Below are positions 2,981-29,105 of a DNA stretch of 64,000 nt, piece after piece (the stretch's first letter is position 1; every line of letters begins with the position of its first letter). Location of the stretch: the NCBI GenBank assembly GCA_036496625.1, contig DASXKW010000011.1:2372-66371 (forward strand). Reading direction: 5' to 3'. This stretch comes from Solirubrobacterales bacterium. Its GTDB lineage: Bacteria; Actinomycetota; Thermoleophilia; Solirubrobacterales; 70-9. The translations under genes and the position numbers were made by a program. The notes under the pieces are model-generated. The model worked only from the letters and a program-made list of their open reading frames with translations, was not told the origin of the DNA and did no database searches.

Positions 2981-3099
2981 GGCTTCGCCATCTCCTCTGG
3001 ATAGTGGTCAGAAGTGCGCATTGAGTGTGGGGGCAAACGCCGCGCACTCCAATCGCATATGCGTCCAGCCGTGCCCGAGAGGGCTAAAGGTTCGCGGCG

Positions 3100-7727: not shown

Positions 7728-7792
7728 GTCGATCCGGCCGCTGCGAATGCGCGACAGGGCCTGCTGGACGGCGGCGCGGGCGAGCCGGCTTC

Positions 7793-12613: not shown

Positions 12614-14321
<1,708 letters not shown>

Positions 14322-14471
14322 GATCGCCTCCTCGGTTCCTGGTTCGCTCGGGTCGCCAGCCGCTGCCGGCAAGCGATCCCGGCTCCATCGCTCGGACACG
14401 TTTAGCTCCACGCGCCCGAGATCTCAACAGGGTTGCCCGATCGGCCTGCCGGGGCGGCCGGGCAGCGTCGG

Positions 14472-15404: not shown

Positions 15405-18013
15405 AGCGTCGGCTGGTCGGTCGACGCGCCCTGGTCGTCGGGGTTCGCCGATGCGGGAGCCTCCGACACCACCCCCTCGGTCTTAGCCGCCTTCCGGCGT
15501 CGCTTCGTCAGCTCGGCCAGGATGCGCTCGTCGAGCGTCTCCAGGTGCCGGGTCACCTCGGCGGCCTCGGTCTGTGCCACGGCGCCGCCCAGCGGCACTC
15601 CGCTCCCGGCAGCGGGTAGCTCGGCGACGTCCTCGACCCTGATCCCCTCCAGCGCGAAGGGCTCGCTCAGCTCGCCGCGGTCGGTGACCTGGGCGATGAA
15701 ATGAAAGCGCCGCAGGCGGGTCAGCGCCGCCGGGTCGGGCTTGCCCGCCCACTCCTTGGTCACGAGGGCTGCCGCGCGGAAGTTCATCGTCGTGGCGAGC
15801 AGGTGCGAGCGGTTGGTGGCGAGCGCGGTCAGCGTCTGCGGGTTCAGCCGCTCGGGGTTCTGGTTTAGCACGATGGCCCGCAGGCCGAACTTCGCGCTCT
15901 GCTCCAGCAGCGCCGCGAGGTTGCCCGAGGCGACGCTGTCGTAGGTCTGCACCTCGTCGAGGAAGACCCAGAAGGGCTTGCGCTCCGACCCGCGCCCCTT
16001 CCCCGCGTGCAGCAGGTCGAAGAGCAGCAGATTGGCGACCAACCGCTCATGGACATCGCTCGATCCGGGATGGGCGAGGACGATCAAGCCCTCGTCCATC
16101 GCCTCGCGCGCCCGGTAGGTGCTTTGGCTCTGGCCGAGCAGTGCCGTGATCGGGGTTGAGCCCGAGAGGCGGTCGACCAGGTTGGTGATCGGCGTGATCG
16201 CCTCCTCGGAGAGGCGCGGGAAGCGCTCGGTCCAGAACGCCTGCGATGAGGAGGGCAGGAAGGGCAGCGCAGCCTCGCGCCACCGCTCGCTGGAGAGCAG
16301 CGGCAGCAGCTGAAAGATCGTCGGGCAGAGCTCGGGCGGCAGGACGCGGGCAACGTGGGCCAGCGCCCGCGTCGCCTGCGTGGTCAGGTTGATCGCCCGC
16401 GTCGACTGATCGCCCCACTGCAGGGTCGAGGCGAAGGCGCCGACGATCGCCGCCACGCGCGACTCGACTTCGGCAGCGTTCTTGCCGCGAAGCTCGAAGA
16501 GGTTCCAGCCCGGCAGCTCCCAGGCACCGCTTTCGCTGACGTCGATCTCGACCACCCGCCGCGCCACCTCGGGCTCGGTCAGGTAGGGCTTGATCCGCGT
16601 GAGCGCGTCGCCGTGGGGATCGAGAAAGAGGCCGCCGCTGCCCGAGCGAACCAGGTGGACGAACTGGGCGATCGCCGTCTCGGTCTTGCCGTAGCGGGAG
16701 CGGCCGGCGATGTAGGTGAAGAAGGTGTCGGCGGTGCGGGCGCCGACGATGCGCTTGCCCCGCTCGCCGCTGACCTTGCCCAGCGGGATCAGGTCGGCTC
16801 GGCCTTCCTCGAAGGTCGGCAGCGAGGGCGCCGCCGGCAGCAGCGTGCCCGAGCGCACGACGTTGGTCGAGACGCAGTGGGCGCTCGGCGGCTTCAGGAA
16901 CCCCGCGACCTCACGGGCGGTGAGGACCGAGCGCTTCGCGGGGCGGTGGAGGCCGGTGGCGAGGCGGCGGTCGAAGCCGCGCCGCCGAGTTGGGAAGTCC
17001 GAGCCGAAGAAGACGACCTCGCCCGCCCCGATGCCCGAGGGGCGCAGCCAATTGTGAGAGCGCATTGGCTCGAAGGCGGCGAGCAGGAGCTGCATCGCAA
17101 GCTTCGCGCGCGGCTTCTCGGCCGCTTCGGCGCAGAGCAGGACCTGTGCCTCATACAGCGGTTCGGAACCGCGCAGCTTTGCGTCGAGCGCCTGGCCGAC
17201 CATGCGTCGCTCCAAGAGCGCCGTCGGGTCGCTCTTGCCGCGTCGCGGCCGTTCGTTGTTGAGAATCTCCGTCAGGCTGCGCTTCTCGCCGTGCAGACGC
17301 TTGGCCTGTCGTTTCAACTTTGCGCGCAGGCGAGCGCGGCGCAGTCCGGCGGTCGACAGCAGGTCGACGCAGACGCTGACCTGCTCGCCGTGCTCTGCCC
17401 TCAGCGAGGCCATCGCCGCGGCGAAGGGCTGGAGCGGATCGGGATCGAGAGCGAGCTGGACCAGCGGTTCGATGCTCGGGCGGGCGAGGACCAGCTCGAT
17501 CCGCAGCCGGACGGCCTGCTCCGGCTGCGCAGGCAGCACCTCGGCGACTTCGCGCAGCTCGACACCCTCGTAGTCGCGCAGCGCCGTCCGCAGCAGCTCG
17601 TGCGAGCGGGCTGGGACTTCGAGCAGATAGACGAGGCGCCCTTTCCGGTCGTTGGTCAGCCGCACGCGCAGGGCGCGGGCGCGGCGGTCGAACCAGCCGC
17701 GCAAGCTGCGATCGCTGCGCGCCAGCTCGGCGGCGAAGCGCTGCACCGCCTCGGCTTTCGGGTCGAACTCATCGGCCGGCACCACGGCCACGGCGGTTCG
17801 CGTCGCCAGCGTGCGGCGCGTGGCGCGGAAGCGCTGTGGAGCCAGCGCGGAGGCGATAGCGATGGCGCCGAGAGCGAGGGGCGCGACCGAGGCCGCCGAG
17901 GCCACCAGGTGAGCGGGATGGATGCTCGATGCGGCATGCACGATCACGGCGATCACGAGGAGGGCGAACAGCGCCAACATCGGCCTCGGATCGTGCGGAT
18001 CGACGCCCATCAT
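15371..18013 (-). CDS. TraD/VirD4-like type IV coupling protein (FtsK/HerA-superfamily P-loop ATPase)
   Basis: TM N-terminus (MLALFALLVIAVIV), Walker A GRSRYGKTE, Walker B FWVFLDEVQTY; trimmed to Met-Met at 18013. Confidence 0.75.
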   Translation of the reverse strand: MMGVDPHDPRPMLALFALLVIAVIVHAASSIHPAHLVASAASVAPLALGAIAIASALAPQRFRATRRTLATRTAVAVVPADEFDPKAEAVQRFAAELARSDRSLRGWFDRRARALRVRLTNDRKGRLVYLLEVPARSHELLRTALRDYEGVELREVAEVLPAQPEQAVRLRIELVLARPSIEPLVQLALDPDPLQPFAAAMASLRAEHGEQVSVCVDLLSTAGLRRARLRAKLKRQAKRLHGEKRSLTEILNNERPRRGKSDPTALLERRMVGQALDAKLRGSEPLYEAQVLLCAEAAEKPRAKLAMQLLLAAFEPMRSHNWLRPSGIGAGEVVFFGSDFPTRRRGFDRRLATGLHRPAKRSVLTAREVAGFLKPPSAHCVSTNVVRSGTLLPAAPSLPTFEEGRADLIPLGKVSGERGKRIVGARTADTFFTYIAGRSRYGKTETAIAQFVHLVRSGSGGLFLDPHGDALTRIKPYLTEPEVARRVVEIDVSESGAWELPGWNLFELRGKNAAEVESRVAAIVGAFASTLQWGDQSTRAINLTTQATRALAHVARVLPPELCPTIFQLLPLLSSERWREAALPFLPSSSQAFWTERFPRLSEEAITPITNLVDRLSGSTPITALLGQSQSTYRAREAMDEGLIVLAHPGSSDVHERLVANLLLFDLLHAGKGRGSERKPFWVFLDEVQTYDSVASGNLAALLEQSAKFGLRAIVLNQNPERLNPQTLTALATNRSHLLATTMNFRAAALVTKEWAGKPDPAALTRLRRFHFIAQVTDRGELSEPFALEGIRVEDVAELPAAGSGVPLGGAVAQTEAAEVTRHLETLDERILAELTKRRRKAAKTEGVVSEAPASANPDDQGASTDQPTLWVPGGTRPKQ

Positions 18014-18210
18014 GCACCGACCCTTGGGTGACGTAGGTATGTCGGCAAAACGGGGAGGCCGCAATCGCCGCTGCCATGCGGGAGAGCGCGCATCTCGGCG
18101 CTTGTCGCCCCGACCCGAGGACCGACCGCAGGGCCGACCCCACGCCCGACCTGTCGCTCGACCGCTGGCCGGTTGCCGCTGCTCGCTCTGTTCGCTGCGT
18201 TCTCCACCAC

Positions 18211-18309
18211 TACTACAGAGCAGGCAGCAGCGAAAGTGGACAGTGATTCGCGGCAAGTTTTAGATTCGGCTCTCATATAACTACGGAGCGGCGAGCAGCG
18301 AAAGTGGAC
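18211..18309. repeat. Two ~30-nt imperfect direct repeats (core AGCAGCGAAAGTGGAC at 18226-18241 and 18294-18309)
   Basis: Read directly; they lie in the non-coding gap upstream of the coupling-ATPase gene and flank an AT-rich stretch. Confidence 0.6.
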
Positions 18310-18446
18310 CCCCTTGTGTGACGAATCCGACGCTTCGCGGCAGGATCGGCCGCTCGTTTTCTTGCTCCCATACCTCCTTGCCGTACGAGAAGGTGTCTTG
18401 CGCCACGGATTTCCGGAGGGGCCGTGTGCTGGAGCCTGGACGGGCG

Positions 18447-18770
18447 CTACGAGGGGGCGGCCGGCTCGTCCTCAGAGACGAGATACGCCGCCGGGCCGGA
18501 GTGCTCGAACCAGCCCGGCCGCCAGGTGACGCCGCTGACGAGATCGCCCACTGAGGTCGAGTAGGCGCCCGCGAGCCGGATCAGGACATCGAGGCTGGGG
18601 ACGTATTCGCCGCCCTCGATCTTGTCGAGCTTGGAGCGGGTGAGCGCAGCTCGCTTGGCGGCCTCCTTCTGGTCGAGGCCGGCCAGCTCACGGGCGCGGT
18701 AGAGGTTGTCCGCGAAGCGGGCCAGCGCCTTGAACGGAAAGGGCACCTTGGAGCGCGAGCCAGCCGTCAT
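18447..18770 (-). CDS. XRE-family HTH regulator
   Basis: FADNLYRARELAGLDQKEAAKRAALTRSKLDKIEGG HTH_3-like; internal Met start gives ATGA-type overlap with upstream gene. Confidence 0.75.
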   Translation of the reverse strand: MTAGSRSKVPFPFKALARFADNLYRARELAGLDQKEAAKRAALTRSKLDKIEGGEYVPSLDVLIRLAGAYSTSVGDLVSGVTWRPGWFEHSGPAAYLVSEDEPAAPS

Positions 18771-19144
18771 CGGGAACCGTTGGCGACCTCGACGGCGGGC
18801 GGGCTGGTCGGCGCCTCGTCGGACTCCCGTAGCACTCGGTCTTCCCGCTCGACCACGTCCCACGAGCCCGGCACGACGATCTCGTAGCCGGGTTGCCACT
18901 CCAGCCCGGCGACGAGGTCGTCAAGCGGCACACCGAGGCTGCCGGCGATCCGCAGCGCCGTGTCGACGCGCGGCATCCGCTCACCGCGCTCAAGCAAGCT
19001 CACCTCGGTGCGGTGGATCGAGGCGCGGAAGCTCAACTCTTCCTGGGAGACATCTGCGCCCTCGCGGCAGCGAGCGAGGTTCCGGCCGAAGCGGACTTTC
19101 ATCTCCGCCGTGGGTGGCGCTGAGGTCGGCGCGCGCTGTCTCAT
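18767..19144 (-). CDS. XRE-family HTH regulator (paralog of 18447-18770)
   Basis: FGRNLARCREGADVSQEELSFRASIHRTEVSLLERGE; shared C-terminal DL(V)xG(L/V)xW(Q/R)PG motif; start could be 19102. Confidence 0.75.
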   Translation of the reverse strand: MRQRAPTSAPPTAEMKVRFGRNLARCREGADVSQEELSFRASIHRTEVSLLERGERMPRVDTALRIAGSLGVPLDDLVAGLEWQPGYEIVVPGSWDVVEREDRVLRESDEAPTSPPAVEVANGSR

Positions 19145-19280
19145 CGCGAACGCCGCCACCGCGCTCCTGCGGTTTCTCGAGGGCCGAGGCAGGTGTCGAG
19201 GTGCCCAACCAGCGGGCACCTCGTACCTCCCTGTGGCCTGCGCCTCGGCCCTCGAAAAACCGCAGGAGCGGCTCGCACGG

Positions 19281-19517
19281 TCACTTCGGCTTCGCCTCCT
19301 TGAGGACGTAGCCGCGCGGGCGCTTCTTGGCTTGGCGCACCTTCCCGTCCTTCGTCAGTCGCGCGAGGCAGTTGGCGACGGCGCCGGCCGAGCGCTCGAT
19401 GCCTTTGGCGATCGCGGTGGCGGTTAGCGGGCCGTCGTCCTTGTGCGCGGCCAGATAGGAGAGCACGAGGCCGTCCAGCTCTCCGGGGCGCAGGCGCTTC
19501 GCCTTCGCCGGGCTCAC
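19281..19517 (-). CDS. Small winged-helix DNA-binding protein
   Basis: LVLSYLAAHKDDGPLTATAIAKGIERSAGAVANCLARLTKDGKV resembles MarR/wHTH; 4-nt overlap with upstream gene. Confidence 0.6.
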   Translation of the reverse strand: MSPAKAKRLRPGELDGLVLSYLAAHKDDGPLTATAIAKGIERSAGAVANCLARLTKDGKVRQAKKRPRGYVLKEAKPK

Positions 19518-19927
19518 GCTCGCTCACCCTCTCGCTCGTCGAGGTCGACGAGCACTTCCTCGCAGGTGTCGAGGCCGAGCTGGAAGCGGGCGTCGGTCTC
19601 GGCGTCGGCTTTCTTGGACTCGCGCTCGGTGCCCGACTCCAAGAGCACCTTTTCGGCCTCGCCGTGGAGGCGCTTCAGCACTTCCATCAGGTCGTGGGTC
19701 GGCATCGTCAGCTCGAATGCCTCGCGGTTGTCCTTCGGCTGCCAGCCGATGTCGGCCAGCAGGCGGAAGTCTTCGCCGAACTCGATGCCGAGCCGCTCGG
19801 CGGTGGCGAAGTCCTCGTTCTCCTCCAGCGCGATCCAGACGTCGCCGATCGCGCCGAGGTGGTTGCGGACCAGCTCGTAGAGACCGTCGCGCTGATCGCG
19901 GTCGATCGTCGCGGTGATGCTGGGCAT
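19514..19927 (-). CDS. Acidic hypothetical protein
   Basis: D/E-rich, no recognisable domain; ATG 19927 preceded by AAAGGGGGG. Confidence 0.5.
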   Translation of the reverse strand: MPSITATIDRDQRDGLYELVRNHLGAIGDVWIALEENEDFATAERLGIEFGEDFRLLADIGWQPKDNREAFELTMPTHDLMEVLKRLHGEAEKVLLESGTERESKKADAETDARFQLGLDTCEEVLVDLDEREGERA

Positions 19928-20020
19928 GGCGCCCCCCTTTCGGTAGGGCACCGAAGAGCCGCCTCAGATCAGGGCCGTCGCTCTACCCGAGCACCGAAGT
20001 GCTCTGGGAGAATCGGTCGC

Positions 20021-20045
20021 GCATCGAAGGATGGTTCTTCGGTGC
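20021..20045. promoter_or_regulatory. Palindromic candidate operator GCATCGAAG-N7-CTTCGGTGC
   Basis: Lies in the divergent intergenic region; additional GCACCGAAG copies at 19948-19956 and 19991-19999. Confidence 0.4.
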
Positions 20046-20249
20046 CAGGCCCCGGGGCGTTAGTGCGCCGCCGGGGCCACTATGTCTTGGTCGGCGATGG
20101 ACGTTAGCTCTGCTGCGCGGAGGAAGCGAGCCGATTGCTGTGGATAGGTGCGGATCGCCTGAAGATCGATTCTTCGGTATCGCGTCGGTCGTCAATCGGG
20201 ACATATCCTGTCCTGAATAACCGACTGAGACGACCTGAAGGGGCAGGGG

Positions 20250-22979
20250 ATGACAAGCCCGAAGCAGCATTCCGCCAAGGAGCCACAGCCATACGCGCAG
20301 TTCTGGCGCTGCGATCTGCAATGCCATTCTCCACTCGAGCCCGAGTTCAAGCCCGGCGTTTCCCGCGACGACAAAGCAGCAGTCACAGGGGCTGCGAAAC
20401 GGTATGTCGACGCCGCGGTGGAGCGCGGCTTGGACGCAATCGCGGTTACTGACCACAACTCGGTTGCGTTCCTTAAAGAGCTCATGGCCGCTGCCACTGG
20501 ACGACTTGTCATCTTCCCGGGCATCGAGGTTTCGGCTGCTGACGGCTACCACTTGCTCGTGATATTCGAGATCGGCACTCGCCCCGCGGTGATCCAGGAA
20601 TTCCTTGCCAAGATTGGGATCAAAGCGGGCGAGGAGCGCGGCCCCCAAGGCGAGCCTGTATGCGCAGAGGACGGTTGGAGTTGGGGCAAGATTCTTGACG
20701 AGGTTGCGCGTCGCAGCGATGCGATCGCGATCGCTCCGCATGTACGAAGCGGCAAGGGCATTCTCAAGAGCAGCATTGCCGGCGAGGTGAAGGCTCGCAA
20801 CTGGAAGCACCCTCACCTCTACGCGATCGAGGACAATCGCAAGTCGTTGATCCCGAAAGGGAGCATGACCGACAAGGTCATGCTGAATGAACTCGACGAC
20901 TACCGCAGGGTGCGAGTTCCCGCGCGGGTTTGGGGGTCTGACTGCAAGTCCTATGACGGCTTGGGTTCTGAATGCACCTTCATCAAGATGACTGAGCCCA
21001 GCATCGAAGGCCTGCGTCAGGCATTCCTGGATCCCGGCTCGCGAATCCGCCATCCAGAGGATTTCCAGCTACACGCCCGTGATCGAATCCTGCGCGTGGG
21101 CTGGCAGGCTGGCTTTCTCTCTGAGCAGGAGGTGGTCTTCTCGGAACAGCTCTCCTGTCTAATCGGCGGAAAGGGAACGGGAAAGTCGACCGTGATCGAG
21201 TCCGTCCGATTTGCTCTCGGCAAGGAGCACGTTGACCAACCACTGGCAAGTCAGTACGAGGGCCTGCTTGAGAGCGCGCTCCCGCGTGGCACCAAGATCA
21301 CCCTGGAAGTCGCCCGGCGCGACGGCTCTCGCTATACGGTCTCCCGAACCGAGCCGTATGAGGCGGAGGTCAGCGACGAGACCGGTGTCGCTGTGGATAT
21401 TCCCGCTATCGACACCATCGATCCGACGATTCTCAGTCAGGGGGAGATCCTCTCGATCGCTCGTCGACCGACTTCCCACCTCGCACTCCTTGATGCTTTC
21501 CTCGAGGATGAGTTGTCAGCGCTGCAAGACACGCAAGAGAAGATAGGACGCGACCTCGCACGCAACCGCTCCCAGTTCGTGGAGGCGATTGAGGAACGTG
21601 AGAGCCTGGCGGAGGACCGAAACGAAATCATTCGCCTAAAGGAGGCGAAGAAGGCCTACGACAAACGGGGTCTGAGTGCTCGCACTGAGCAGCGTCGTGC
21701 CCTCGACCGCGAGGAACGCCTCGTCAAAGAGGCGATCGAAGCGGCGTCCGAAGCTGAGGCGGAGCTCGCTGGGCTCGAAGAGGAGGTGGAGTTGCCTTAC
21801 CTCCTGGTTGATAGGGACCTGCCGCACCATGAGCTTTGGAAGCCGCTACACAAACGCTGGCTGAAAGCCGTGAAAGTAGTTGCTGACCTTCGAACCAAAG
21901 GCGCCACCCTCTATGAGGGACTGGCCGAGGAACTAAGACAGATCACGGCAAGCGAGTCGGAGTGGGTCAGATCGATTGCCCGCCAGCGCGAGGAGGTATC
22001 CGCGGTCTACCGCGAACTGCAAGAGGAGTATCCGGATCTAGACCTCGCTCAGTTCGACAGGCTCGACCGCGCGCTTGAGGAGCTGCAGTCACGGATTGAC
22101 GATGGTGCTGGCATCGAGGCGCAGATCTCCGAGCTGTCGGGCAAGCGGCGCAAACTGCTTAAGCGGTTGCGAGAGAACCGCCGAGATCAGTTCCTCTTGC
22201 GAAACGAGTTGGCTGCGGGTCTAAACGAGGCTTTGATTGGCAGCGTCCGCATCGACGTCGAGTTTCTCGGGGACCGCGACAGCGCCCTGGAGCATCTGCT
22301 GGAGCTGAAGAGCGGTGTGCGTCGCGAGGCGTTGAAGCGGATCGTCGAGCACGACGACTTCACCCCGGAGCGTCTGGGAGAGACGCTGGGCAAAGGGGCC
22401 GAGGCGACTGTCGCAACCTTTGGCATTACCGAGGGGCAGGCGTCGACCCTCATCAGCAAGACGAGCATCGCACATAGACTTCAGCTCGAAGAGCTCCTCA
22501 TTCCTGAGCGCGTCGTAATTAACTTCAACACCTCACGACGCGGCGATGATCCTCGCTACCGCAACCTTTTGAATGTCAGTGTTGGCCAGAAGGCGACCTG
22601 CGTACTTCTCATTCTTCTGGCTCAAGACGGTCCACCTTTGATCGTCGATCAGCCGGAGGACGATCTCGACAATCGCTTCGTCTACGACGACATCGTCGAG
22701 CGTCTCCGCGACGTCAAGGACAAGAGGCAACTAATCCTGTCGACCCACAATGCGAACATTCCCGTGTTGGGCGACGCCGAGTTGATCGCCGTCATGGACA
22801 CCGAGGAGCGCAGCGGCAGAACCGCTGGTGTTGTCTCCGACCTCGGCTCTATCGATTCCGCCTCCATTCGCCGCTCGGTTACTCACATCCTTGAGGGAGG
22901 CCGCCGCGCCTTCCGCCGACGCCAGGAAAAGTATGGGGCCCCCGGACTCGACGAAGACGAGCAGCTGGGCAAGGAATGA
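20250..22979 (+). CDS. PHP-domain phosphoesterase fused to ABC/SMC-type coiled-coil ATPase
   Basis: PHP motifs (CDLQCHSP, IAVTDHNS, GIEVSA, IAPH). Walker A GGKGTGKST, Q-loop SQGE, long coiled coil, signature-like SVGQKA, Walker B LIVDQPEDDLD, STHN. Lower G+C than flanks. Confidence 0.85.
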   Translation: MTSPKQHSAKEPQPYAQFWRCDLQCHSPLEPEFKPGVSRDDKAAVTGAAKRYVDAAVERGLDAIAVTDHNSVAFLKELMAAATGRLVIFPGIEVSAADGYHLLVIFEIGTRPAVIQEFLAKIGIKAGEERGPQGEPVCAEDGWSWGKILDEVARRSDAIAIAPHVRSGKGILKSSIAGEVKARNWKHPHLYAIEDNRKSLIPKGSMTDKVMLNELDDYRRVRVPARVWGSDCKSYDGLGSECTFIKMTEPSIEGLRQAFLDPGSRIRHPEDFQLHARDRILRVGWQAGFLSEQEVVFSEQLSCLIGGKGTGKSTVIESVRFALGKEHVDQPLASQYEGLLESALPRGTKITLEVARRDGSRYTVSRTEPYEAEVSDETGVAVDIPAIDTIDPTILSQGEILSIARRPTSHLALLDAFLEDELSALQDTQEKIGRDLARNRSQFVEAIEERESLAEDRNEIIRLKEAKKAYDKRGLSARTEQRRALDREERLVKEAIEAASEAEAELAGLEEEVELPYLLVDRDLPHHELWKPLHKRWLKAVKVVADLRTKGATLYEGLAEELRQITASESEWVRSIARQREEVSAVYRELQEEYPDLDLAQFDRLDRALEELQSRIDDGAGIEAQISELSGKRRKLLKRLRENRRDQFLLRNELAAGLNEALIGSVRIDVEFLGDRDSALEHLLELKSGVRREALKRIVEHDDFTPERLGETLGKGAEATVATFGITEGQASTLISKTSIAHRLQLEELLIPERVVINFNTSRRGDDPRYRNLLNVSVGQKATCVLLILLAQDGPPLIVDQPEDDLDNRFVYDDIVERLRDVKDKRQLILSTHNANIPVLGDAELIAVMDTEERSGRTAGVVSDLGSIDSASIRRSVTHILEGGRRAFRRRQEKYGAPGLDEDEQLGKE

Positions 22980-23130
22980 GACAGGCCGTCGGTCCGGTGG
23001 CTGGTTAATAGGAGGTTTGCAGCTGGCCACACGATGTGGCTCAAGCCGTGTGATTTGTGACGCCCAGGTGTTGGAGACCGGAATTAGCCGCGAAGGTGAC
23101 TCTGGCTCGTCAAATTACCGGCGAATCGAC

Positions 23131-23165
23131 TAAAGAAAGAGACCGCCACGAAAACCGGAGGGCGG
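23131..23165 (-). terminator. Possible intrinsic terminator downstream of the STAND NTPase gene
   Basis: On the minus strand: CCGCC-N13-GGCGG followed by TCTCTTTCTTT; short stem. Confidence 0.3.
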
Positions 23166-23195
23166 AGCGAACTAATCGACCCCTTTGGTCGATGC

Positions 23196-25487
23196 TTAGC
23201 CGAGCCGCTCGAACATCAGCGCGATATCGCGGTCGCTGTCGCCGTAATCGGACTCGAGCTCCTCTGCGGAATCCCTCGCGAAGTGTTGACGGTCAGGTTC
23301 GTAGTCGTCGTCCGGATCCTCCTCGGAGAGCAATTCCCGGGCCTCCTCGAATCTCTCGTTGTCCACCGAGGAGTCCAGGCTCATGTAGTGAAATTCGAGG
23401 GTATCGACCTCGTTTGGACCGTCGAGCCAAGCGACTGGGTCGTCGAGGACCTCTTCGAGATATTCCCCGAAGCCTCTGCAGATCTCCGTCCATTCGGCAT
23501 CGCTGAAAAGGTCTGGCACAGCGTCATGGAGCTCGTCAACGCAGCCCCACCTCTCGGGCCCGGAATCCATCTGCTCGACTACCGCTCGAACGATTTCGCC
23601 ACTAGCTGTCAACTCGAAGGCACCGAGTTTCGACAAGCCGGGAAGAAGTCTTGGCGTTGCCGTGTCGACCGGGGCTGAGGTATTGCCGACATCGGACAGC
23701 CATTTCCGACCGATGTCGATCCAGACCTCCACATGATCCGCCAGCTCGGGCGTCTCATTCACATATTTCAAGACGCGCTGGAGCCGACTCTGCAGGACCG
23801 GATGATCATCCCACGTCCACGGAGCGTCCATCAATTCGAAGATCAGGGAGATACCAGATCCTTCGACGACTGCCGACTCAAGCGTTCTACCGAATGCCTC
23901 GCTGAAGGCTCTTGCGAGCCGCGGGGGTGGCGATCCGTCGGTCGGGCTCAGCGCGTTCCACAGCCAGACGACCTGCTCAAAGAAGTGCGCCCCCCGGATC
24001 GCCTGTTCGGCATCGGCGGGACTCGCGAGTAGGTAGTTGCGAAGGAAATCGACAAGGGAAGGGTTTATGAAGGAGAGGTGAGAGTCTGCGCCACCATCAG
24101 AACGGAGGAAGGAGTCATCCAGGACCTCGAGCGAACGGATGAACTGCCTGCCGGCGACGGGTAGCCCTTGCGCCTTGCAGGCACTCTCGAAGGCCGCTTC
24201 GACATCCCGGTCGGATGCCCTCCGGGGTAGCCCCAGCATGGAGGTCAGCATGGCTCGTTCGGCGGCGCCGAGCCCCTGCTCGAACGCATGGCTCCAAAGC
24301 TGCTGGGGATTGTTCAGGACCGAGAGGCAGTAGGACGCGTAATCCTCTTTCTCCTCATCCGAGGGTCGATGGCCTGACCATCCGGTGATCCACTCGATCA
24401 ACCGTGGGTTGTAGCCCTCGTGATCTATGACCTTCAGATAGTTGCGGTCTGCTCGCAGAGAAAGCCGCGCTGTGGCGTCGATCGCATCAGAGAAGTAGAT
24501 GTGGTTATAGAAGATCCGCGCCTTCTCCTGGCGGTTATAGCTGTCGATCGTCAGAAGGAACTTGCGGTCCTCGTTGGCATCCCGGTCCAAAGCCTCCGAT
24601 AGTTGCGTCGCCTGGCGCAGGATGTACTCGCGCGTAGCCAGGACGAATCGTCTCCTTGGCGTGCGCATCACCTTCTTCATCAACTTCAGCAGCTCAGCGT
24701 CGTAATGGCGCGATTCAAAGAGCGCAGTCTGGCCGAGGAAGTCGTCGAAATAGAAGAGCTGCGACTCGTCCTCGACTTCCAACAGCTTCCACGCATCGTC
24801 GAGCCCGCCGGGCGCGATCTCGTAGGGCTGAAAACCCTCCTCCAGGGCGTCTAGCATCAGAAGACGCGCGAGCGTGGTCTTGCCGACTCCTGGTGGTCCT
24901 GCGATGACACAGAGCTTCTGCTGGCGGAGAATCTGTCTCGCGTTGTGAAACGCCTCGGTTTCCACGACTCGCGGCAGCGCTTGCCGCGATTCTTCCAGTA
25001 GAGCGCGGCTCCTTTGGAAGGCGGCCGCGTTCAGTAGTTGCTGCAGCGGACCAGCTCCTGCCAACCAAAGCTTCACATGACGGCTTTCCACGCGGGTGTG
25101 GTTCCGCAGTAGACGGCGCAGATCGTTTTCCCCGTACACATTGTCCACGGAATCGATCCATTGCCCAAGGATTGATGCGATCTCGTCCCTCTGTCGATGG
25201 TTCAGGCGTAGCGAGGTTGCGAACCGGTAAGACCCAAAGCTCGCCCCTGCCGCCTTGAGCTTGGCTGCCTCCACCTTCGCCACTGTCCGCAGCTTCGCGT
25301 AGGTCCCATCGCGGTAATGCTTGCATTGGACCACATGCTCGCCTCCTTCGTCATCGACTGCGAGGACATCGATCCCTCCATCCCGTCCACGGGTTCCGGC
25401 TCTGAACGGGCGCCCAAACTCAGCCCGCATCAGGTCGGCAACAAGCTCCTCAAAGTCGAGGTCGGAAAGTTCGTCGAACTTAGCCAT
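23196..25487 (-). CDS. Mrr-like PD-(D/E)xK nuclease domain + STAND-type P-loop NTPase + helical C-terminal region
   Basis: GGIDVLAV...HVVQCKHY (Mrr_cat-like), Walker A GPPGVGKTT, Walker B LFYFDDFLG, REYILRQA and YNPRLIEW blocks, acidic tail; ATG 25487 preferred over TTG 25511. Confidence 0.85.
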   Translation of the reverse strand: MAKFDELSDLDFEELVADLMRAEFGRPFRAGTRGRDGGIDVLAVDDEGGEHVVQCKHYRDGTYAKLRTVAKVEAAKLKAAGASFGSYRFATSLRLNHRQRDEIASILGQWIDSVDNVYGENDLRRLLRNHTRVESRHVKLWLAGAGPLQQLLNAAAFQRSRALLEESRQALPRVVETEAFHNARQILRQQKLCVIAGPPGVGKTTLARLLMLDALEEGFQPYEIAPGGLDDAWKLLEVEDESQLFYFDDFLGQTALFESRHYDAELLKLMKKVMRTPRRRFVLATREYILRQATQLSEALDRDANEDRKFLLTIDSYNRQEKARIFYNHIYFSDAIDATARLSLRADRNYLKVIDHEGYNPRLIEWITGWSGHRPSDEEKEDYASYCLSVLNNPQQLWSHAFEQGLGAAERAMLTSMLGLPRRASDRDVEAAFESACKAQGLPVAGRQFIRSLEVLDDSFLRSDGGADSHLSFINPSLVDFLRNYLLASPADAEQAIRGAHFFEQVVWLWNALSPTDGSPPPRLARAFSEAFGRTLESAVVEGSGISLIFELMDAPWTWDDHPVLQSRLQRVLKYVNETPELADHVEVWIDIGRKWLSDVGNTSAPVDTATPRLLPGLSKLGAFELTASGEIVRAVVEQMDSGPERWGCVDELHDAVPDLFSDAEWTEICRGFGEYLEEVLDDPVAWLDGPNEVDTLEFHYMSLDSSVDNERFEEARELLSEEDPDDDYEPDRQHFARDSAEELESDYGDSDRDIALMFERLG

Positions 25488-25683
25488 CAGCCCCGATTCT
25501 CGGCAATCCAAGAAGAAAAAGCGTCTTCAGTCGACGGAGGGGTCGCAACTACGACGCGGCAAGCAATCCTGGGCGGGGTCAATCTTGCGATCCCACCGCC
25601 GGAGTCCCTCTTTTGCTGCCGAGGAGCGTGCGGCCCAAAAAGGGGCCAGATCCGGTAGCAGCACGCCCTGCACCCCGCCTCAC

Positions 25684-25750
25684 CCCGGATCTCAATCCGG
25701 CGTCCTTTGACGACTCCTGCCTGTCGCTTCGGCCGTTCCTTCAAATCGGC
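25684..25750. repeat. Degenerate copy of the integrase-tail/att block
   Basis: CGGATCTCAATCCGGCGTCCTTTGACGACTCCTGCCTGTCGCTTCGG aligns with blocks at 27752-27804 and 36888-36940. Confidence 0.5.
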
Positions 25751-25795
25751 GGTGTCGGTTCAGGCCGGTCCCGCGATTGTTCACCGGATGAGAGG

Positions 25796-26299
25796 TTATG
25801 AGGCGAGTGGGTCCTGGCCGAGGATGCGGCTTGAGGGCATGGCTTTCTTACGCAGGTCGATGGGATCGAGGCTGGCTTTCTTGGCGAGCTTGCCGATGAA
25901 CTGATCGGGGTGGTGGCCCCCTCCCGTACGGCCGGGAAGCCGCCAGACCTGTGGCTTGCGGAGTGTGGTGCGGGAGGCGATGTCCTCGATGTGGGCCAGA
26001 ACCAGGCCGGTGGAGCGGATCGGATCGTGGCCGGCGGCGACGGGTGCGACGAGCGTCAGGCGCGTAAAGCCGAGGACCGCCAGCTCACGCTCCTGGTCGA
26101 GCATGCTCGTGTCGTTGCTGATCAGTCCGTCCCATTCGCGGGAGTGGTGGTGGAGGGCGAGCAGCAATTCCCAGTCGTCGAGTTCCGGTAGGCGCGGATC
26201 GATGTCGCCGATCGGCACCAGCTCGACATCGCGGAGATACGGTTTTGCTTGCTCGATGATCGGCATCGGGTAGTTGTGGTCGAGAGCGAACAGAGCCAC
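25796..26299 (-). CDS. PIN-like (DUF5615/Mut7-C-like) putative toxin
   Basis: FALDHNYP..., DDWELL, LISNDTSM acidic motifs spaced as in PIN-like folds; follows a DUF433-type gene. Confidence 0.5.
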   Translation of the reverse strand: MALFALDHNYPMPIIEQAKPYLRDVELVPIGDIDPRLPELDDWELLLALHHHSREWDGLISNDTSMLDQERELAVLGFTRLTLVAPVAAGHDPIRSTGLVLAHIEDIASRTTLRKPQVWRLPGRTGGGHHPDQFIGKLAKKASLDPIDLRKKAMPSSRILGQDPLAS

Positions 26300-26318
26300 T
26301 GTCGCCTCCTCCGACTGC

Positions 26319-26990
26319 CTACGCCGCAGCCGCTACCGGTTCCAGGTTCCTGGCAAGTTGGGCCTCGAGATCCAGCGCTTCGTTGATCGCCGTCCTGTCG
26401 AAGCTCGGATAGAGGCCGTAGAGCTTTGCCTTGTCGACTCCGCGCTGCGCAATCGCGGCGAGGGCCTCCGTCTCCAGACGAGTGCGAAGAAGGTGGGGGG
26501 CGCCAGCCAACTTGCTGGCGATGATTCGCAGCCGGGGTCGAGGCGCGAACAGGTCCGGTCCTCGAATCCCCGCCTCGGACTCGAACGGCTCGATCAGATC
26601 CAGGTTGTGGAGAGGCAGTTGCCCTCCAACCGGCACGCTGTCCTCTGCCGGTCCGACGTAGACCTCTCCTTCGCGACTCACCCGCACCATGTAACCGTCC
26701 TCCTCGTCCCAAAGATCGAGGTCAATGCGATCGAGCTCGGCGAGAGCATCTCGGACTACCGACATCGGGGTCGGGGGTATCTCGTCGCCCTCGGGCGTCG
26801 GCTTTGGGTGGCGCAGCCAGTAGATGGCGCGCAGGCCCATCAAGTCCGTGTACGACCAGAGCTTCACCCGAGTCGGCGACACGCTGGGGACGAGCCATTC
26901 CTTGCGTGCCCAGTGGTGGACCGTCGACTTCGGCACTCCGGAGAGCGCTGCTGCCCGCTCGGCGGTATATGCGCCACGGCGATCGTTCAT
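26319..26990 (-). CDS. MerR-like HTH + DUF433-like protein (putative antitoxin/regulator)
   Basis: YTAERAAALSGVPKSTVHHWARKEW HTH; C-terminal RIIASKLAGAPHLLRTRLETEALAAI... resembles DUF433; Met at 26990. Confidence 0.55.
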   Translation of the reverse strand: MNDRRGAYTAERAAALSGVPKSTVHHWARKEWLVPSVSPTRVKLWSYTDLMGLRAIYWLRHPKPTPEGDEIPPTPMSVVRDALAELDRIDLDLWDEEDGYMVRVSREGEVYVGPAEDSVPVGGQLPLHNLDLIEPFESEAGIRGPDLFAPRPRLRIIASKLAGAPHLLRTRLETEALAAIAQRGVDKAKLYGLYPSFDRTAINEALDLEAQLARNLEPVAAAA

Positions 26991-27079
26991 CTGCCCAGTA
27001 TCGCGCGCCGGCCCGACGAGTGGCCTCGTTCTCGAAGGGATGCCAGCGATGATCTTGGCTGTGCTCGTGCGCACCACCC

Positions 27080-27517
27080 TTACATCGCCCCTGTGCTGAG
27101 GCGCTCGACGGCAGCGAGAACTCGCTCGAACTGGCCTTCGGCAAGCAAGTCGATCGGCTTCTCTCCGCCCAGGTCGCGGCTGCGGCCGTGAACCCAGATG
27201 TCGGTGCCCTCGGCGGTGTAGACATCGCGCAGCCGCTCCAAGATGTAGTGGAGCTCCAGCAGCCGGTCTTTCGCTTGCCCTTGGGGCCGGTGGGTGCCGG
27301 CGGCCCAGTGCTGGACCTGGCGCGTCTTGACGCCAGTGATCTTCGCCAGCTCGGCGTTGGTCAAGACGCCGCCTCGGAGATCGTCGACGAGGTGGGCATA
27401 GAGGCCAATGGGCGGGGGTGCTTGCGTTGTTTGCATTGACATCCGCATCATGCCGGAAGACAGCGCATCAAACAACGCCCCAAATGACATGGTCGTCAGA
27501 CTGGCGTTCATCGACAC
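27080..27517 (-). CDS. Xre/MbcA/ParS-type antitoxin (HTH + DUF2384 toxin-binding domain), no cognate RES toxin adjacent
   Basis: LTNAELAKITGVKTRQVQHWAAG HTH; C-terminal WVHGRSRDLGGEKPIDLLAEGQFERVLAAVERL typical of DUF2384. Confidence 0.65.
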   Translation of the reverse strand: MSMNASLTTMSFGALFDALSSGMMRMSMQTTQAPPPIGLYAHLVDDLRGGVLTNAELAKITGVKTRQVQHWAAGTHRPQGQAKDRLLELHYILERLRDVYTAEGTDIWVHGRSRDLGGEKPIDLLAEGQFERVLAAVERLSTGAM

Positions 27518-27540
27518 TGCCGACGTACGATCATTGACTT

Positions 27541-27732
27541 ATGAAATGGCCTGAACATCCGAAGCCTCATCACCAAGCCCGGAGCGGCGACGCGAATGCC
27601 ACCCGGCGGGCACCCGTCGGCCTGTCCGTGATTGCACTTGACGAGGAAGAGGCCCGCCGCTTCCTCAAGGCGCTTGAGCGGCCCTGCGGCCAAACGGTCG
27701 CGCGGCTCGCAGACCTGCGTCACCGGGCGTAG
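27541..27732 (+). pseudogene. Possible fragment of a DUF1778 (TacA-like) antitoxin
   Basis: Only the C-terminal IALDEEEARRFLKALERP pattern is recognisable; no GNAT toxin downstream. Confidence 0.3.
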
Positions 27733-28262
27733 CCGGAAAGATCCTGCTCAACCCCGAATCTCAATCCGGTGTCCTTTGAGGACTCCTGCCCCGTCGCTCC
27801 CGCTCGTTGAAGTGCCTGGATTTGGGCGAGTTTCAGGCTCCTTTTCTGGCGCTGTCTTGTCCTCCTGACCTCCGGTTGATTGGGCACTGGTGCCCATTGG
27901 GGACCACGCCTCGTCGCCAGCAGCCCTCCCATCCGGGTCTTCGGCTGCATCCCGGTCACGTCGGTGTAGACGCGAAGAGTCATGCGCGGGTCGCGGTGCC
28001 CCATCTGCGCGGCGGTGATCGCAGGATGCTCCCCAAGCTCTGCGCGCAGGGCCGCGTAGGTTCGGCGGAGCGAGTGGAACGTGAGCCCTTCCGGCAGCGG
28101 CGGTCGATCCTCGGCGCCGAGCAGCTCGTTTGCCTTCGTGATCGCCGCGTAGAGGATTTTCGTGCGGACGCTGTTGCGCTCACGCGGCTTCTCGCGGATG
28201 CGACCGGCGAATACGAAGTCGTCCGGCAGCTCGCCAGCCGGATCGAAGGCCGAGATTAGGCA
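27720..28262 (-). pseudogene. Tyrosine recombinase (phage integrase) C-terminal fragment
   Basis: My translation of the minus strand gives ...LTFHSLRRTYAALRAELGEHPAITAAQMGHRDPRMTLRVYTDV (HxLRxT and GH...Y boxes). N-terminal two-thirds absent. The tail reads through the att-like block. Confidence 0.75.
27727..27820. repeat. att-like block B containing exact tRNA-Asp 3' 15-mer (27790-27804)
   Basis: CCCGTCGCTCCCGCT identical to 12675-12689; block homologous to 36865-36953. Confidence 0.8.
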
Positions 28263-28350
28263 GTGAGTACGCGCATTTGCGTTGCTACTCCCTCGCCCCG
28301 GTCTCGCCCTGGCCGATCGCTACGAGCTGGCTGCGGCTGGCCGCCGCGCG

Positions 28351-28755
28351 TCAGCGCAGTAGCTGCACCTTGCACGTCAGGCCGCGGACTTTGGCGGCCT
28401 CTCGGTCGCCGGTCAGGACCAGACTGACCTCTGGGTGGATCTCTGCCGTCGCCAAGATCATGGCGTCCGGCATTCGCAGCGATTTGCGACGAGCGCGGAG
28501 GTGGGCAGCCGTGTCCGCCACATCCATATCGACGGGTAGAACTTCTGAGATCAGGTCGCTGAAGAATCCCTTGACTTGGCGCCCGTCGTGGTGCCCAAGC
28601 TTTGCGCCGGTCAGAACCTCGGCATAGGTCACGACTGAGACGAGCAGTCGTTCTTTGCCAAGGAGATCGCGGATCGCCTTGTCTGCGGCATCGTGAAGGG
28701 CGTCGTTGCGGTCGAGAAAGCCGACGACCGCGTCGGAGTCGAGGACTACCGCCAC
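28351..28755 (-). CDS. vapC: PIN-domain toxin VapC
   Basis: VVLDSDAVVGFL... N-terminal Asp, conserved acidic residues, ~130 aa; overlaps vapB by 10 nt. Confidence 0.85.
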   Translation of the reverse strand: MAVVLDSDAVVGFLDRNDALHDAADKAIRDLLGKERLLVSVVTYAEVLTGAKLGHHDGRQVKGFFSDLISEVLPVDMDVADTAAHLRARRKSLRMPDAMILATAEIHPEVSLVLTGDREAAKVRGLTCKVQLLR

Positions 28756-28985
28756 TCCTCGCGCAGCCCTTCCACGCGCTCGCGCAGGTCGCCGCCAGTG
28801 TCGAGGCAGCCGGAGTAGCGATCGATCAGCTCGTCGATCCGCGTCAAGACGACCCGGCCCGCTCCCTCGGCTTCCACCCTCAACATGTCGCCAGGCTCGA
28901 ACCCCGCCTTGCGAAATGGGGACGCCGGTATCGTCACTTGGTGCTTGCTGGAGACCCGGGTCTGGTTCTTTACCTTCTCAGTCAT
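28746..28985 (-). CDS. vapB: AbrB/SpoVT-type antitoxin VapB
   Basis: VSSKHQVTIPASPFRKAGFEPGDMLRVE swapped-hairpin motif. Confidence 0.8.
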   Translation of the reverse strand: MTEKVKNQTRVSSKHQVTIPASPFRKAGFEPGDMLRVEAEGAGRVVLTRIDELIDRYSGCLDTGGDLRERVEGLREEWR

Positions 28986-29105
28986 AGGTAAAGACTAGCC
29001 GATGCCAACCGATGCCGCAACGAATCTCGACTCGCCGCGACGGCTTCGCGTCGAGCTGATGGACCGAGACGATCGCATGACGCCTGCCTGGCTCACGCCG
29101 ACCCC

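Follow-up and report, generated by a model that had tools for sequence, protein, structure and literature searches.

STAND/NLR-type receptors are a main bacterial route for the detection of phage proteins. In 2026, 90 or more STAND families were proposed, with the trigger known for only some of them, and a survey of that year comprises a STAND tree of 589 clades. For Avs7-21, triggers were sought by toxicity screens in which phage gene libraries were co-expressed. Among the closest described systems, Avs proteins with a nuclease oligomerise, and so become active, once the sensor has bound a phage protein. Apo Avs7 is autoinhibited via contacts between the C-lobe, the NBD and the nuclease, and it carries a conserved C-terminal helix. 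Avs5 (SIR2-STAND) is experimentally anti-phage and activated by phage proteins, and the NTPase of PaAvs5 is annotated as nSTAND3. Avs5, Avs6 and Avs9 constitute a SAMD9-like group that also takes in human SAMD9/9L, with SIR2 (Avs5), PNP (Avs6) and AlbA_2 (Avs9/SAMD9) as effectors.

The Mrr-nSTAND3 architecture is compact, widespread across phyla, plasmids, prophages and integrative elements, and already catalogued computationally as the PADLOC candidate PDC-S73. A paper testing eight PDC candidates did not have PDC-S73 among them, and our literature search found neither a paper naming PDC-S73 nor experimental data on the Mrr-nSTAND3 architecture. A first-pass annotation of the locus described here had assumed that the nSTAND families lack experimental data; this agrees with our search for Mrr-nSTAND3, but not with nSTAND3 as a whole, as the NTPase of the characterised Avs5 carries the same annotation.

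Gene and domain organisation

In the window (the whole stretch of DNA analysed, 64,000 nucleotides), the ORF list contains a reading frame at 23196..25511 on the minus strand, encoding 771 aa from a TTG. An ATG at 25487 gives a 763-aa protein with the N-terminus MAKFDELSDLDFEE. Since relatives begin at this same position, the ATG was taken as the start in preference to the upstream TTG at 25511, which would give the longer protein. The first-pass coordinates of 23196-25487 are thus right, and the strand, which had gone unstated, is minus. The gene, which is intact, evolves under purifying selection, with a dN/dS of 0.087 against an 83%-identical homologue, an approximate value because dS (~1) is close to saturation. 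By region, the lowest dN/dS of the gene was obtained in the NTPase (0.041, aa 191-335), and a value of 0.114 in the variable C-terminus. Additionally, a second, independent sample holds an identical copy, so that the identical protein is present on two independent contigs. The scan for promoters and terminators and the Rfam search gave nothing useful around the gene. The gene comes from a metagenomic contig of high GC, to which Solirubrobacterales are the closest named relatives.

The features of the gene, with the basis of each assignment in brackets, are as follows.

23196..25487, minus: complete CDS, 763 aa plus stop, with Mrr nuclease, nSTAND3 NTPase, candidate helical sensor and acidic tail (ORF and translation)
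25143..25487, minus: Mrr-type PD-(D/E)xK nuclease effector, aa 1-115, with E13, D40 and Q54-C55-K56 (Pfam, conservation and model)
24918..25142, minus: conserved helical linker joining nuclease and NTPase, aa 116-190, with invariant L127, K139 and W141 (model and identity)
24483..24917, minus: P-loop NTPase (NBD) of the nSTAND3 family, aa 191-335, with Walker A G197-K203-T204, Walker B D248-D249 and R286 (Pfam and conservation)
24228..24482, minus: helical domain after the NBD, aa 336-420, with invariant H356, P361 and P394 (model and conservation)
24018..24227, minus: winged-helix domain, aa 421-490, of two helices, a beta-hairpin and a third helix (DSSP of the model)
23322..24017, minus: variable, very acidic, Trp-rich alpha-helical domain, aa 491-722, candidate sensor (model and identity)
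23238..23321, minus: disordered acidic linker EDPDDDYEPDRQHFARDSAEELESDYGD, aa 723-750 (pLDDT and composition)
23199..23237, minus: conserved C-terminal amphipathic helix SDRDIALMFERLG, aa 751-763, with the motif [ILVM]xx[LMIV]Fxx[L], proposed latch (motif count and model)

The nuclease was recognised by Pfam Mrr_cat (PF04471) with 33.8 bits against a cut-off of 21 (E=4e-8), the match covering only model positions 2-72 of 115, and by Mrr_cat_2 (E=7e-4). Both hallmarks of Mrr_cat membership, an acidic catalytic residue and an (E/Q)-x-K motif, are present: across 99 homologues, E13 and D40 are invariant and Q54, C55 and K56 are at least 90% conserved. In the AlphaFold2 model, the nuclease core adopts an alpha-beta-beta-beta-alpha-beta order with pLDDT above 90. 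The linker that follows is helical over residues 120-190, and here relatives have a mean identity of 52% to the query. Together, the Mrr domain and the linker (aa 3-177) match the PADLOC model Aga_TIR-PNTD1-PNTD2 with E=1e-24.

The NTPase was matched by Pfam nSTAND3 (PF20720) over aa 175-332 with 153.2 bits against a gathering cut-off of 27.2 (E=5.7e-45), and the whole model is covered (positions 2-155 of 155). Residues G197, G200, G202, K203, D248, D249 and R286 are invariant in the 99 homologues. The nSTAND3 and Mrr_cat matches are far beyond chance. They bear out what had been read from short motifs in the first-pass annotation, namely an Mrr-type PD-(D/E)xK N-terminus (GGIDVLAV, aa 37-44, and VVQCKHY, aa 52-58) and a P-loop NTPase (GPPGVGKTT, aa 197-205, and LFYFDDF, aa 244-250). 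The guess at an nSTAND family proved correct, the family being nSTAND3, and the profile searches proposed with it placed both domains above their Pfam cut-offs.

Downstream of the NBD, helices 338-416 of the helical domain are modelled with pLDDT of ~90. The winged helix consists of the DSSP elements H426-439, H448-456, E461-464, E470-473 and H476-488, with N475-P476-S477 and D480-F481 conserved. The PDC-S73 model and distant relatives cease aligning near this domain, at aa 482-510. The protein therefore contains the parts that define the STAND superfamily architecture: Walker A, an hhhhDD Walker B, a helical domain, a winged helix and a C-terminal region. From this STAND homology, a nucleotide-dependent oligomerisation switch is predicted.

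Structural and profile searches

The full-length AlphaFold2 model (pLDDT 85.9) shows the order nuclease, linker, NBD, helical domain, winged helix and helical domain. The best Foldseek matches in the PDB were Avs4 with portal (8dgf_B, E=1.2e-8), SAMD9 (9zjs), the EfAvs5 and PaAvs5 filaments (9jap, 9nc9), Apaf-1 and RPP1, which supports the effector-NTPase-sensor order proposed at first reading as a STAND domain order. Full-length TM-scores are low (0.2-0.3), as domain orientations differ. When all PDB chains were searched by sequence, using the protein, the 99-sequence family profile and the NTPase-WHD part, generic P-loop matches were obtained and no Avs, SAMD9 or Apaf-1 chain; the tie to solved STANDs thus rests on fold and Pfam family only. 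A Foldseek search of viral structures was uninformative, yielding generic AAA+ proteins plus a single NLR-like siphovirus protein. Among PADLOC models, 11 families matched at E<=1 and no Avs model (Avs1-5) was among them. NCBIfam has no specific model for the 763-aa protein, and PHROGs gave a P-loop match only.

Variable C-terminal domain

Beyond aa 336, the model is all-helical except for the winged-helix hairpin, and aa 491-722 form 12 helices with pLDDT mostly above 88. This domain has a net charge of -30 and the tail (aa 723-763) of -12, giving the C-terminal third a net charge of ~-42. Among the 15 Trp residues of the protein, 9 lie within aa 491-722. Composition, charge and model thus agree with the earlier description of a helical, Trp-rich C-terminal part with an acidic tail.

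Mean identity to the query falls to 25% in aa 491-722, compared with 42-54% in the N-terminal modules. On these alignments, the conserved effector and switch combined with a variable C-terminus follow the evolutionary pattern of immune receptors, and aa 491-722 are a candidate sensor. This type of C-terminal domain is represented by only 19 cluster representatives among 1.84 billion proteins. The 2026 STAND survey used a criterion of at least 400 aa C-terminal of the NTPase for a large repeat sensor; here, ~430 aa follow the NTPase and ~230 aa follow the winged helix, and the fold is a generic helical repeat. The structural comparison with Avs sensors suggested in the first-pass annotation gave no specific match: when aa 421-763 were modelled separately and searched with Foldseek against the PDB, nothing significant was found (best E=5e-3, to generic TPR, PPR and solenoid proteins), so no known Avs sensor can be assigned to this domain.

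Acidic linker and C-terminal helix

The protein ends in a disordered acidic linker and a short amphipathic helix ([ILVM]xx[LM]F), a family-wide feature absent from the first-pass annotation. In the full-length model, aa 725-747 have pLDDT below 50. The composition of the linker is conserved and its sequence is not (11% identity), and the last 60 aa carry a mean net charge of -12.5 in 135 relatives. The motif of the terminal helix was observed within the final 30 aa in 125 of the 135 full-length relatives (93%), compared with 2.4% of internal windows, and F759 is at least 90% conserved in the 99 homologues. Furthermore, the helix has a pLDDT of ~90 in the full-length model and of 40-51 in the model of aa 421-763, a contrast between alignments that differ in depth (99 and 22 sequences, respectively). 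A helix that is confident only with the N-terminal half present suggests that the acidic linker and the amphipathic helix may act as an autoinhibitory latch. Such a latch would be a simple account of how a small receptor keeps a DNA nuclease off and, if true, a minimal model of NLR autoinhibition; if the idea fails, the gene simply joins the other annotated defence candidates.

A few relatives carry an SSB-like D-D-L-P-F tip, which stands beside the helix or replaces it. Under a more speculative reading, which we hold to be highly improbable, the tail would mimic an SSB C-terminus-like acidic tail or DNA while plugging the nuclease/NTPase module, and phage proteins that bind such tails (recombination proteins, replication proteins or DNA-mimic binders) would pull it off and fire the nuclease. 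This would represent guard/decoy sensing in a bacterial NLR, unlike the fold recognition by the large TPR sensors of Avs1-21. A beta-clamp-binding motif (QL[SD]LF) was also considered for the tail and dropped on sequence inspection, as position -3 from the Phe is polar or charged, not Leu.

Genomic context and distribution

The gene lies within a low-GC island (GC 0.60 vs 0.70), beside a Ppl/TrlF-like defence ATPase and toxin-antitoxin genes. The surrounding element, observed in two unrelated samples, carries a serine recombinase at tRNA-Asp, Replic_Relax and a large unknown protein. Relatives were identified throughout many bacterial phyla as well as in one archaeon, some of them carried by plasmids, by a temperate phage or by integrative elements, and the homologues number roughly 900. 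Among them, some are located on another copy of the same element type and on an element with Prim-Pol, SSB and TrwC genes, others on 43 plasmids (28 of them conjugative), and one in the temperate Clostridium phage HM T. Beside the relatives no gene recurs, and this applies to the TrlF/Ppl-like gene and the upstream small ORFs as well. The Mrr-nSTAND3 gene is cargo of an integrative mobile element, and the TrlF/Ppl-like gene is separate cargo.

Proposed mechanism and alternative explanations

Homology and domain anatomy make it reasonably likely that the gene encodes an antiviral STAND (bacterial NLR-like) receptor that works alone, as a single protein, and belongs to the Mrr-nSTAND3 family; it would be a trigger-activated, oligomerising DNA nuclease that aborts infection. 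The resting protein would be monomeric and closed, probably with ADP bound, and intramolecular contacts, including those of the C-terminal amphipathic helix on its acidic-linker tether, may keep the Mrr nuclease from other copies. During infection, the fast-evolving, acidic helical domain (aa 491-722) would bind a phage-derived ligand. Because this domain is so negatively charged, a basic protein that binds nucleic acid is the most plausible candidate. Its capture would release the closed state and allow the NBD to exchange its nucleotide, and the NBD-HD-WHD modules would then oligomerise, either into tetramers as in Avs3/4/7 or into filaments as in Avs5. Mrr domains joined in this way into active dimers or tetramers are predicted to cut double-stranded DNA indiscriminately, so that phage replication would be halted and the cell lost (abortive infection).

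The mobile location of the gene bears on two other explanations. The same mechanism could serve competition between mobile elements or stabilisation of the gene's own element (plasmid/ICE exclusion, addiction), with a rival element or the loss of the host element as trigger. The position inside an integrative element in two unrelated samples is consistent with this, as are the relatives that adjoin TrwC, Prim-Pol and SSB genes or occupy the 28 conjugative plasmids. However, a temperate phage bears a relative too, location does not discriminate because such elements often carry defence genes, and all characterised nuclease- or NADase-STANDs of similar type respond to phage proteins; we consider this role unlikely. 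Plasmids, phages and integrative elements suit restriction systems equally, the nuclease belongs to the Mrr family, and RefSeq names relatives "restriction endonuclease". The protein could be a restriction enzyme of Mrr type (Type IV-like) that depends on NTP and itself recognises foreign DNA, modified DNA for instance; its NTPase would then serve regulation or assembly, and its C-terminal domain would be no protein sensor. This is quite improbable given the anatomy: the catalytic domain begins at residue 5, with no Mrr-like N-terminal (winged-helix) DNA-recognition domain upstream; the NTPase, with its helical and winged-helix domains, is a STAND and neither a translocase nor a McrB-type GTPase; and the C-terminal third, at a net charge of ~-42, is unfavourable for DNA binding and diverges quickly in a way that recalls protein-sensing receptors.

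A two-gene system with the PHP-ABC ATPase gene (TrlF/Ppl-like, 20250-22979) was also weighed, as both proteins match defence-related models and the genes are adjacent in one low-GC island, with 216 bp between their stop codons. Their convergent orientation rules out a shared operon. Neither the 83%-identical nor the 55%-identical homologue has the TrlF-like gene beside it, a tblastn search with its product found it at 0 of 38 other homologue loci, and in the sister element the Mrr-nSTAND3 gene abuts a backbone gene directly. PADLOC and NCBIfam, moreover, describe Ppl as a single-gene system. This pairing is largely refuted by the absent co-occurrence, and we regard it as barely credible.

Comparison with known systems

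The protein resembles Avs4 (and Avs3/Avs7) in its N-terminal PD-(D/E)xK nuclease, STAND NTPase and helical C-terminus, and Avs4 is the top PDB fold match. Avs4, however, has 1534 residues and a large TPR sensor, compared with ~230 aa after the winged helix here. The first-pass remark that ~760 aa is short for a classical Avs holds in that comparison, but this length is normal for the PDC-S73 family, and only ~230 aa of it are a candidate sensor. The protein also differs from Avs3/4/7 in having no PADLOC Avs match and no sequence match to the solved chains, and nSTAND3 is a different Pfam NTPase family.

With Avs5 and SAMD9, the likeness lies in the nSTAND3 NTPase, common to PaAvs5, and in the fold, with EfAvs5, PaAvs5 and SAMD9 all placed within the top four matches. 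Of effector, NTPase and sensor, the NTPase family is the only one in common with the Avs5/SAMD9-like group, and the protein falls outside that group, its effector being Mrr. In addition, the family profile misses the Avs5 and SAMD9 chains, and the C-terminal domain alone gave no match to 9zjs, 9jap or 9nc9. Mrr and Type IV restriction enzymes share the catalytic core with its D...Q-x-K signature; here, that core lacks an N-terminal domain for DNA recognition and is joined to a STAND switch and an acidic helical domain.

Among database matches, PDC-S73 ranks first (E=2.3e-116), aligned over HMM positions 5-487 of 752, the N-terminal two thirds. The Mrr domain, linker, NTPase, helical domain and winged helix all align, the lengths are similar (752 HMM positions vs 763 aa), and both are single genes without a conserved partner. 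HMM positions 488-752 are unmatched by the 763-aa protein, so its C-terminal domain is of another, rare type. The locus is a clean, intact example of the PDC-S73 family with a rare, very acidic variant of the candidate sensor.

Gene integrity and domain architecture

The window has a G+C content of ~70%, with an island of ~60% G+C at roughly 19.5 to 28.5 kb. The longest open reading frame inside this island lies at 23196-25511 on the minus strand, and translation from the ATG at 25487 yields a protein of 763 aa (MAKFDELSDLDFEELVADLM...IALMFERLG). This start is backed by the homologues, whose N-termini begin at the same position. An independent Logan assembly contains a second copy encoding an identical protein. 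Against the gene of the 83%-identical homologue, dN/dS was 0.087 (an approximate ratio, as dS is ~1 and near saturation). Split by domain, the ratio rises from 0.041 in the NTPase to 0.114 in the C-terminal domain and 0.27 in the tail. The gene is real, intact and under selection.

All motifs quoted in the first-pass annotation, which had proposed a Mrr-type nuclease joined to a STAND NTPase, were found in the 763-aa translation. Both assignments were upheld by profile searches: Mrr_cat at aa 5-75 (E=4e-8) and nSTAND3 at aa 175-332 (E=5.7e-45, entire model) exceed the curated Pfam cut-offs, and the protein has STAND architecture as well. Across 99 aligned full-length homologues, residues E13, D40, G197, G200, G202, K203, D248, D249 and R286 were invariant and Q54-C55-K56 was conserved at ≥90%; the nuclease and NTP sites are therefore both maintained. 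The top PADLOC match was PDC-S73, a candidate system consisting of a single gene (E=2.3e-116), aligned over HMM positions 5-487 of 752 only. Additionally, the PADLOC model Aga_TIR-PNTD1-PNTD2 matches the first 177 residues (E=1e-24), which suggests that nuclease and linker form a shared cassette. NCBIfam searches returned no specific model for the protein.

Predicted structure

A full-length AlphaFold2 model built on the 99-homologue alignment (mean pLDDT 85.9, pTM 0.63) shows the following regions.

Regions of the AlphaFold2 model
aa 1-115: alpha/beta nuclease core
aa 120-190: helical linker
aa 191-335: nucleotide-binding domain (NBD)
aa 338-416: helical domain (HD)
aa 426-488: winged helix (WHD)
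aa 490-722: twelve further helices
aa 725-747: disordered acidic stretch
aa 752-760: final helix

Foldseek comparison of this model with the PDB gave portal-bound Avs4 as the top match (8dgf, E=1.2e-8), followed by human SAMD9 (9zjs), EfAvs5 (9jap) and PaAvs5 (9nc9), with Apaf-1 and RPP1 also among the best. The TM-scores are low (0.2-0.3), as expected for multi-domain proteins in differing conformations. None of these six proteins was found by sequence searches of PDB chains, including a search with the family profile. When aa 421-763 were modelled on their own (pLDDT 80.6), no PDB match was significant; the top hits, at E=5e-3 or above, were TPR, PPR or solenoid proteins of a generic kind. 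The C-terminal domain is therefore described as a helical domain without a recognisable sensor type.

Distribution and divergence of the family

At an E-value of ≤1e-5 the protein matches at least 884 database clusters, the full-length ones almost all measuring 745-800 aa. Scanning one genome per species identified relatives in Actinomycetota, Pseudomonadota, Bacteroidota, Campylobacterota, Spirochaetota, Verrucomicrobiota and Patescibacteria, and in the archaeon Methanogenium marinum. In that scan the alignments almost always ended at query residues 482-558, at the winged helix or shortly beyond it. Mean identity to the protein is 42-54% across the nuclease, linker, NBD, helical domain and winged helix, 25% over aa 491-722, 11% in the acidic linker and 40% in the last helix. 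When aa 491-763 were searched exhaustively against 1.84 billion cluster representatives, only 19 proteins reached E≤1e-3. In all of these the match runs to the C-terminus or close to it; those of 750-790 aa have the region at about residues 490-760, and the shorter ones may be fragments. As judged from these alignments, the family combines a conserved effector and switch with a putative, rapidly diversifying sensor, as would be expected of an immune receptor.

The last third of the protein is extremely acidic: aa 491-722 carry a net charge of -30 (the family averages -20) and aa 723-763 one of -12; the last 60 residues of 135 full-length relatives average -12.5. The motif [ILVM]xx[LMIV]F occurs in the last 30 residues of 125 of these 135 relatives, compared with 2.4% of random internal windows, and its hydrophobic positions (i, i+3, i+4, i+7) share one helix face. 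Relatives in other phyla, and the archaeal one, keep this motif although their candidate sensor regions cannot be aligned. The pLDDT of the C-terminal helix is ~90 in the full-length model versus 40-51 in the aa 421-763 model, although alignment depths differ; this fall suggests that the helix packs against the N-terminal half. This tail module may be newly described here. In three distant relatives (from Sphingomonas pruni, a Mesorhizobium MAG and a Polaribacter isolate) the last residues are DDLPF or DVPF, a sequence similar to the acidic tip at the C-terminus of bacterial SSB; two of these three also have the usual [ILV]xxLF helix.

Genomic context

The segment at about 12614-29000 is probably an integrated mobile element, of which the Mrr-nSTAND3 gene is cargo.

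Features of the element, in window order
12614-12688, plus strand: tRNA-Asp, overlapping the 3' end of the serine recombinase gene
12633-14411, minus strand: large serine recombinase
14472-15404, minus strand: Replic_Relax
15371-18256, minus strand: 880-960-aa protein of no known function, matching PHROG 5156 (likewise without known function)
between the preceding and the following gene: two HTH genes
20250-22979, plus strand: PHP and ABC ATPase of the TrlF family, Ppl-like (NCBIfam, PADLOC)
23196-25487, minus strand: Mrr-nSTAND3 gene
after the Mrr-nSTAND3 gene: small ORFs of no known function
27080-27517, minus strand: Xre/MbcA/ParS-type antitoxin-like gene, 143 aa
28351-28755, minus strand: PIN-domain toxin, overlapping the MazE-like gene by 10 nt
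28746-28985, minus strand: MazE-like antitoxin; the pair lies on the border of the low-GC region

Past the MazE-PIN pair, ordinary high-GC genes (ICMT, ECF sigma factor) resume. The TrlF-like protein (909 aa) combines an N-terminal PHP phosphoesterase domain with an SMC/ABC-type ATPase. It scores 484 bits with the NCBIfam model 'TrlF family AAA-like ATPase' (cut-off 350), matches PADLOC Ppl-like (E=1.5e-50) and reaches 216 bits with Ppl_antiphage, below its 1000-bit cut-off. Its gene is convergent with the Mrr-nSTAND3 gene and absent from a sister element; it is therefore regarded as independently acquired, defence-type cargo.

Locus L004 carries the sister element, which shares the backbone of the element in the window but has different cargo. 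At 2381-3291 of that locus, an 89%-identical counterpart of the 143-aa antitoxin-like protein is encoded ahead of a RES-domain toxin gene. The next gene downstream in the window instead encodes a 223-252-aa MerR-like/PHROG 31673 protein, which points to replacement or loss of the toxin partner. A 40-nt direct repeat was also observed (25682-25721 and 27751-27790); its two copies share 37 of 40 positions, and no such repeat is expected by chance. Its minus-strand sequence contains the hairpin CCGGAT-TGAG-ATCCGG, in which the second copy's substitution still pairs as G-U. The copies lie ~200-270 nt upstream of the minus-strand starts of the Mrr-nSTAND3 gene and the 143-aa Xre-like gene. The repeat has no Rfam match and, among the loci compared, is present only in the window contig and its Logan twin.

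The settings of relatives vary. The 55%-identical homologue occupies the same element type with the same backbone genes, and the neighbours of the 83%-identical homologue are entirely different from those in the window. At the latter locus (L003), HepT/MNT toxin-antitoxin pairs lie nearby, and a 750-aa SMC_N/AAA_15 ATPase gene (7616-9868) in the same orientation precedes the homologue by 132 nt. This ABC-type ATPase differs from the TrlF-like protein, so the recurrence of an ABC ATPase may be a coincidence within defence islands. A Nocardia homologue neighbours Prim-Pol, SSB and TrwC genes. Furthermore, relatives occur on 43 plasmids, 28 of them predicted conjugative. The temperate Clostridium phage HM T (KU517658.1) encodes a 787-aa relative (6001-8364 of its locus, L041) between a replication module and a sigma factor/integrase-family gene, a position consistent with a prophage-encoded defence gene. 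Plasmid and phage relatives are annotated only as 'restriction endonuclease' (the HM T protein included), 'ATP-binding protein' or 'AAA family ATPase'.

Proposed mechanism

By homology and anatomy, the protein is probably an Avs-type nuclease that oligomerises once activated by a trigger. In the resting state it would be closed and autoinhibited; binding of a phage product to the C-terminal domain would open it, allowing assembly through the NBD-HD-WHD module. The Mrr domains would then pair and cut DNA, aborting infection.

The same chemistry under a different trigger could serve mainly in competition between mobile elements, on some of which relatives reside; we consider this main role rather unlikely. 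A DNA-sensing, Type IV-like restriction enzyme is an improbable reading of the Mrr-type nuclease, and the DNA-recognition domain of Mrr is missing from the protein. A two-gene system with the adjacent TrlF-like gene is highly improbable and largely refuted: that gene is absent beside the 55%-identical homologue, and none of the window neighbours, the TrlF-like gene among them, recurs at 38 other homologue loci. The protein is therefore considered a stand-alone system.

Comparison with known systems

The protein is a new member of the computationally defined Mrr-nSTAND3/PDC-S73 family and carries a rare variant of the candidate sensor, matching PDC-S73 over its N-terminal two thirds; the PADLOC Avs models gave no match. 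In the literature searched, no experimental work on this family was found. Avs5, with an NTPase annotated as nSTAND3, is triggered by phage proteins and confers protection from phages. Together with Avs6 and Avs9 it forms a SAMD9-like group with exchangeable effectors; our protein has none of the effectors of these three. Apo Avs7, which has a conserved C-terminal helix, is kept inactive through contacts of the C-lobe, NBD and nuclease. At least 90 Avs families have been proposed in a 2026 STAND survey, which identified triggers for 14 of them; the present protein may already have a clade number there. The architecture will not surprise a specialist; the compact size and conserved tail make the protein a convenient, testable model.
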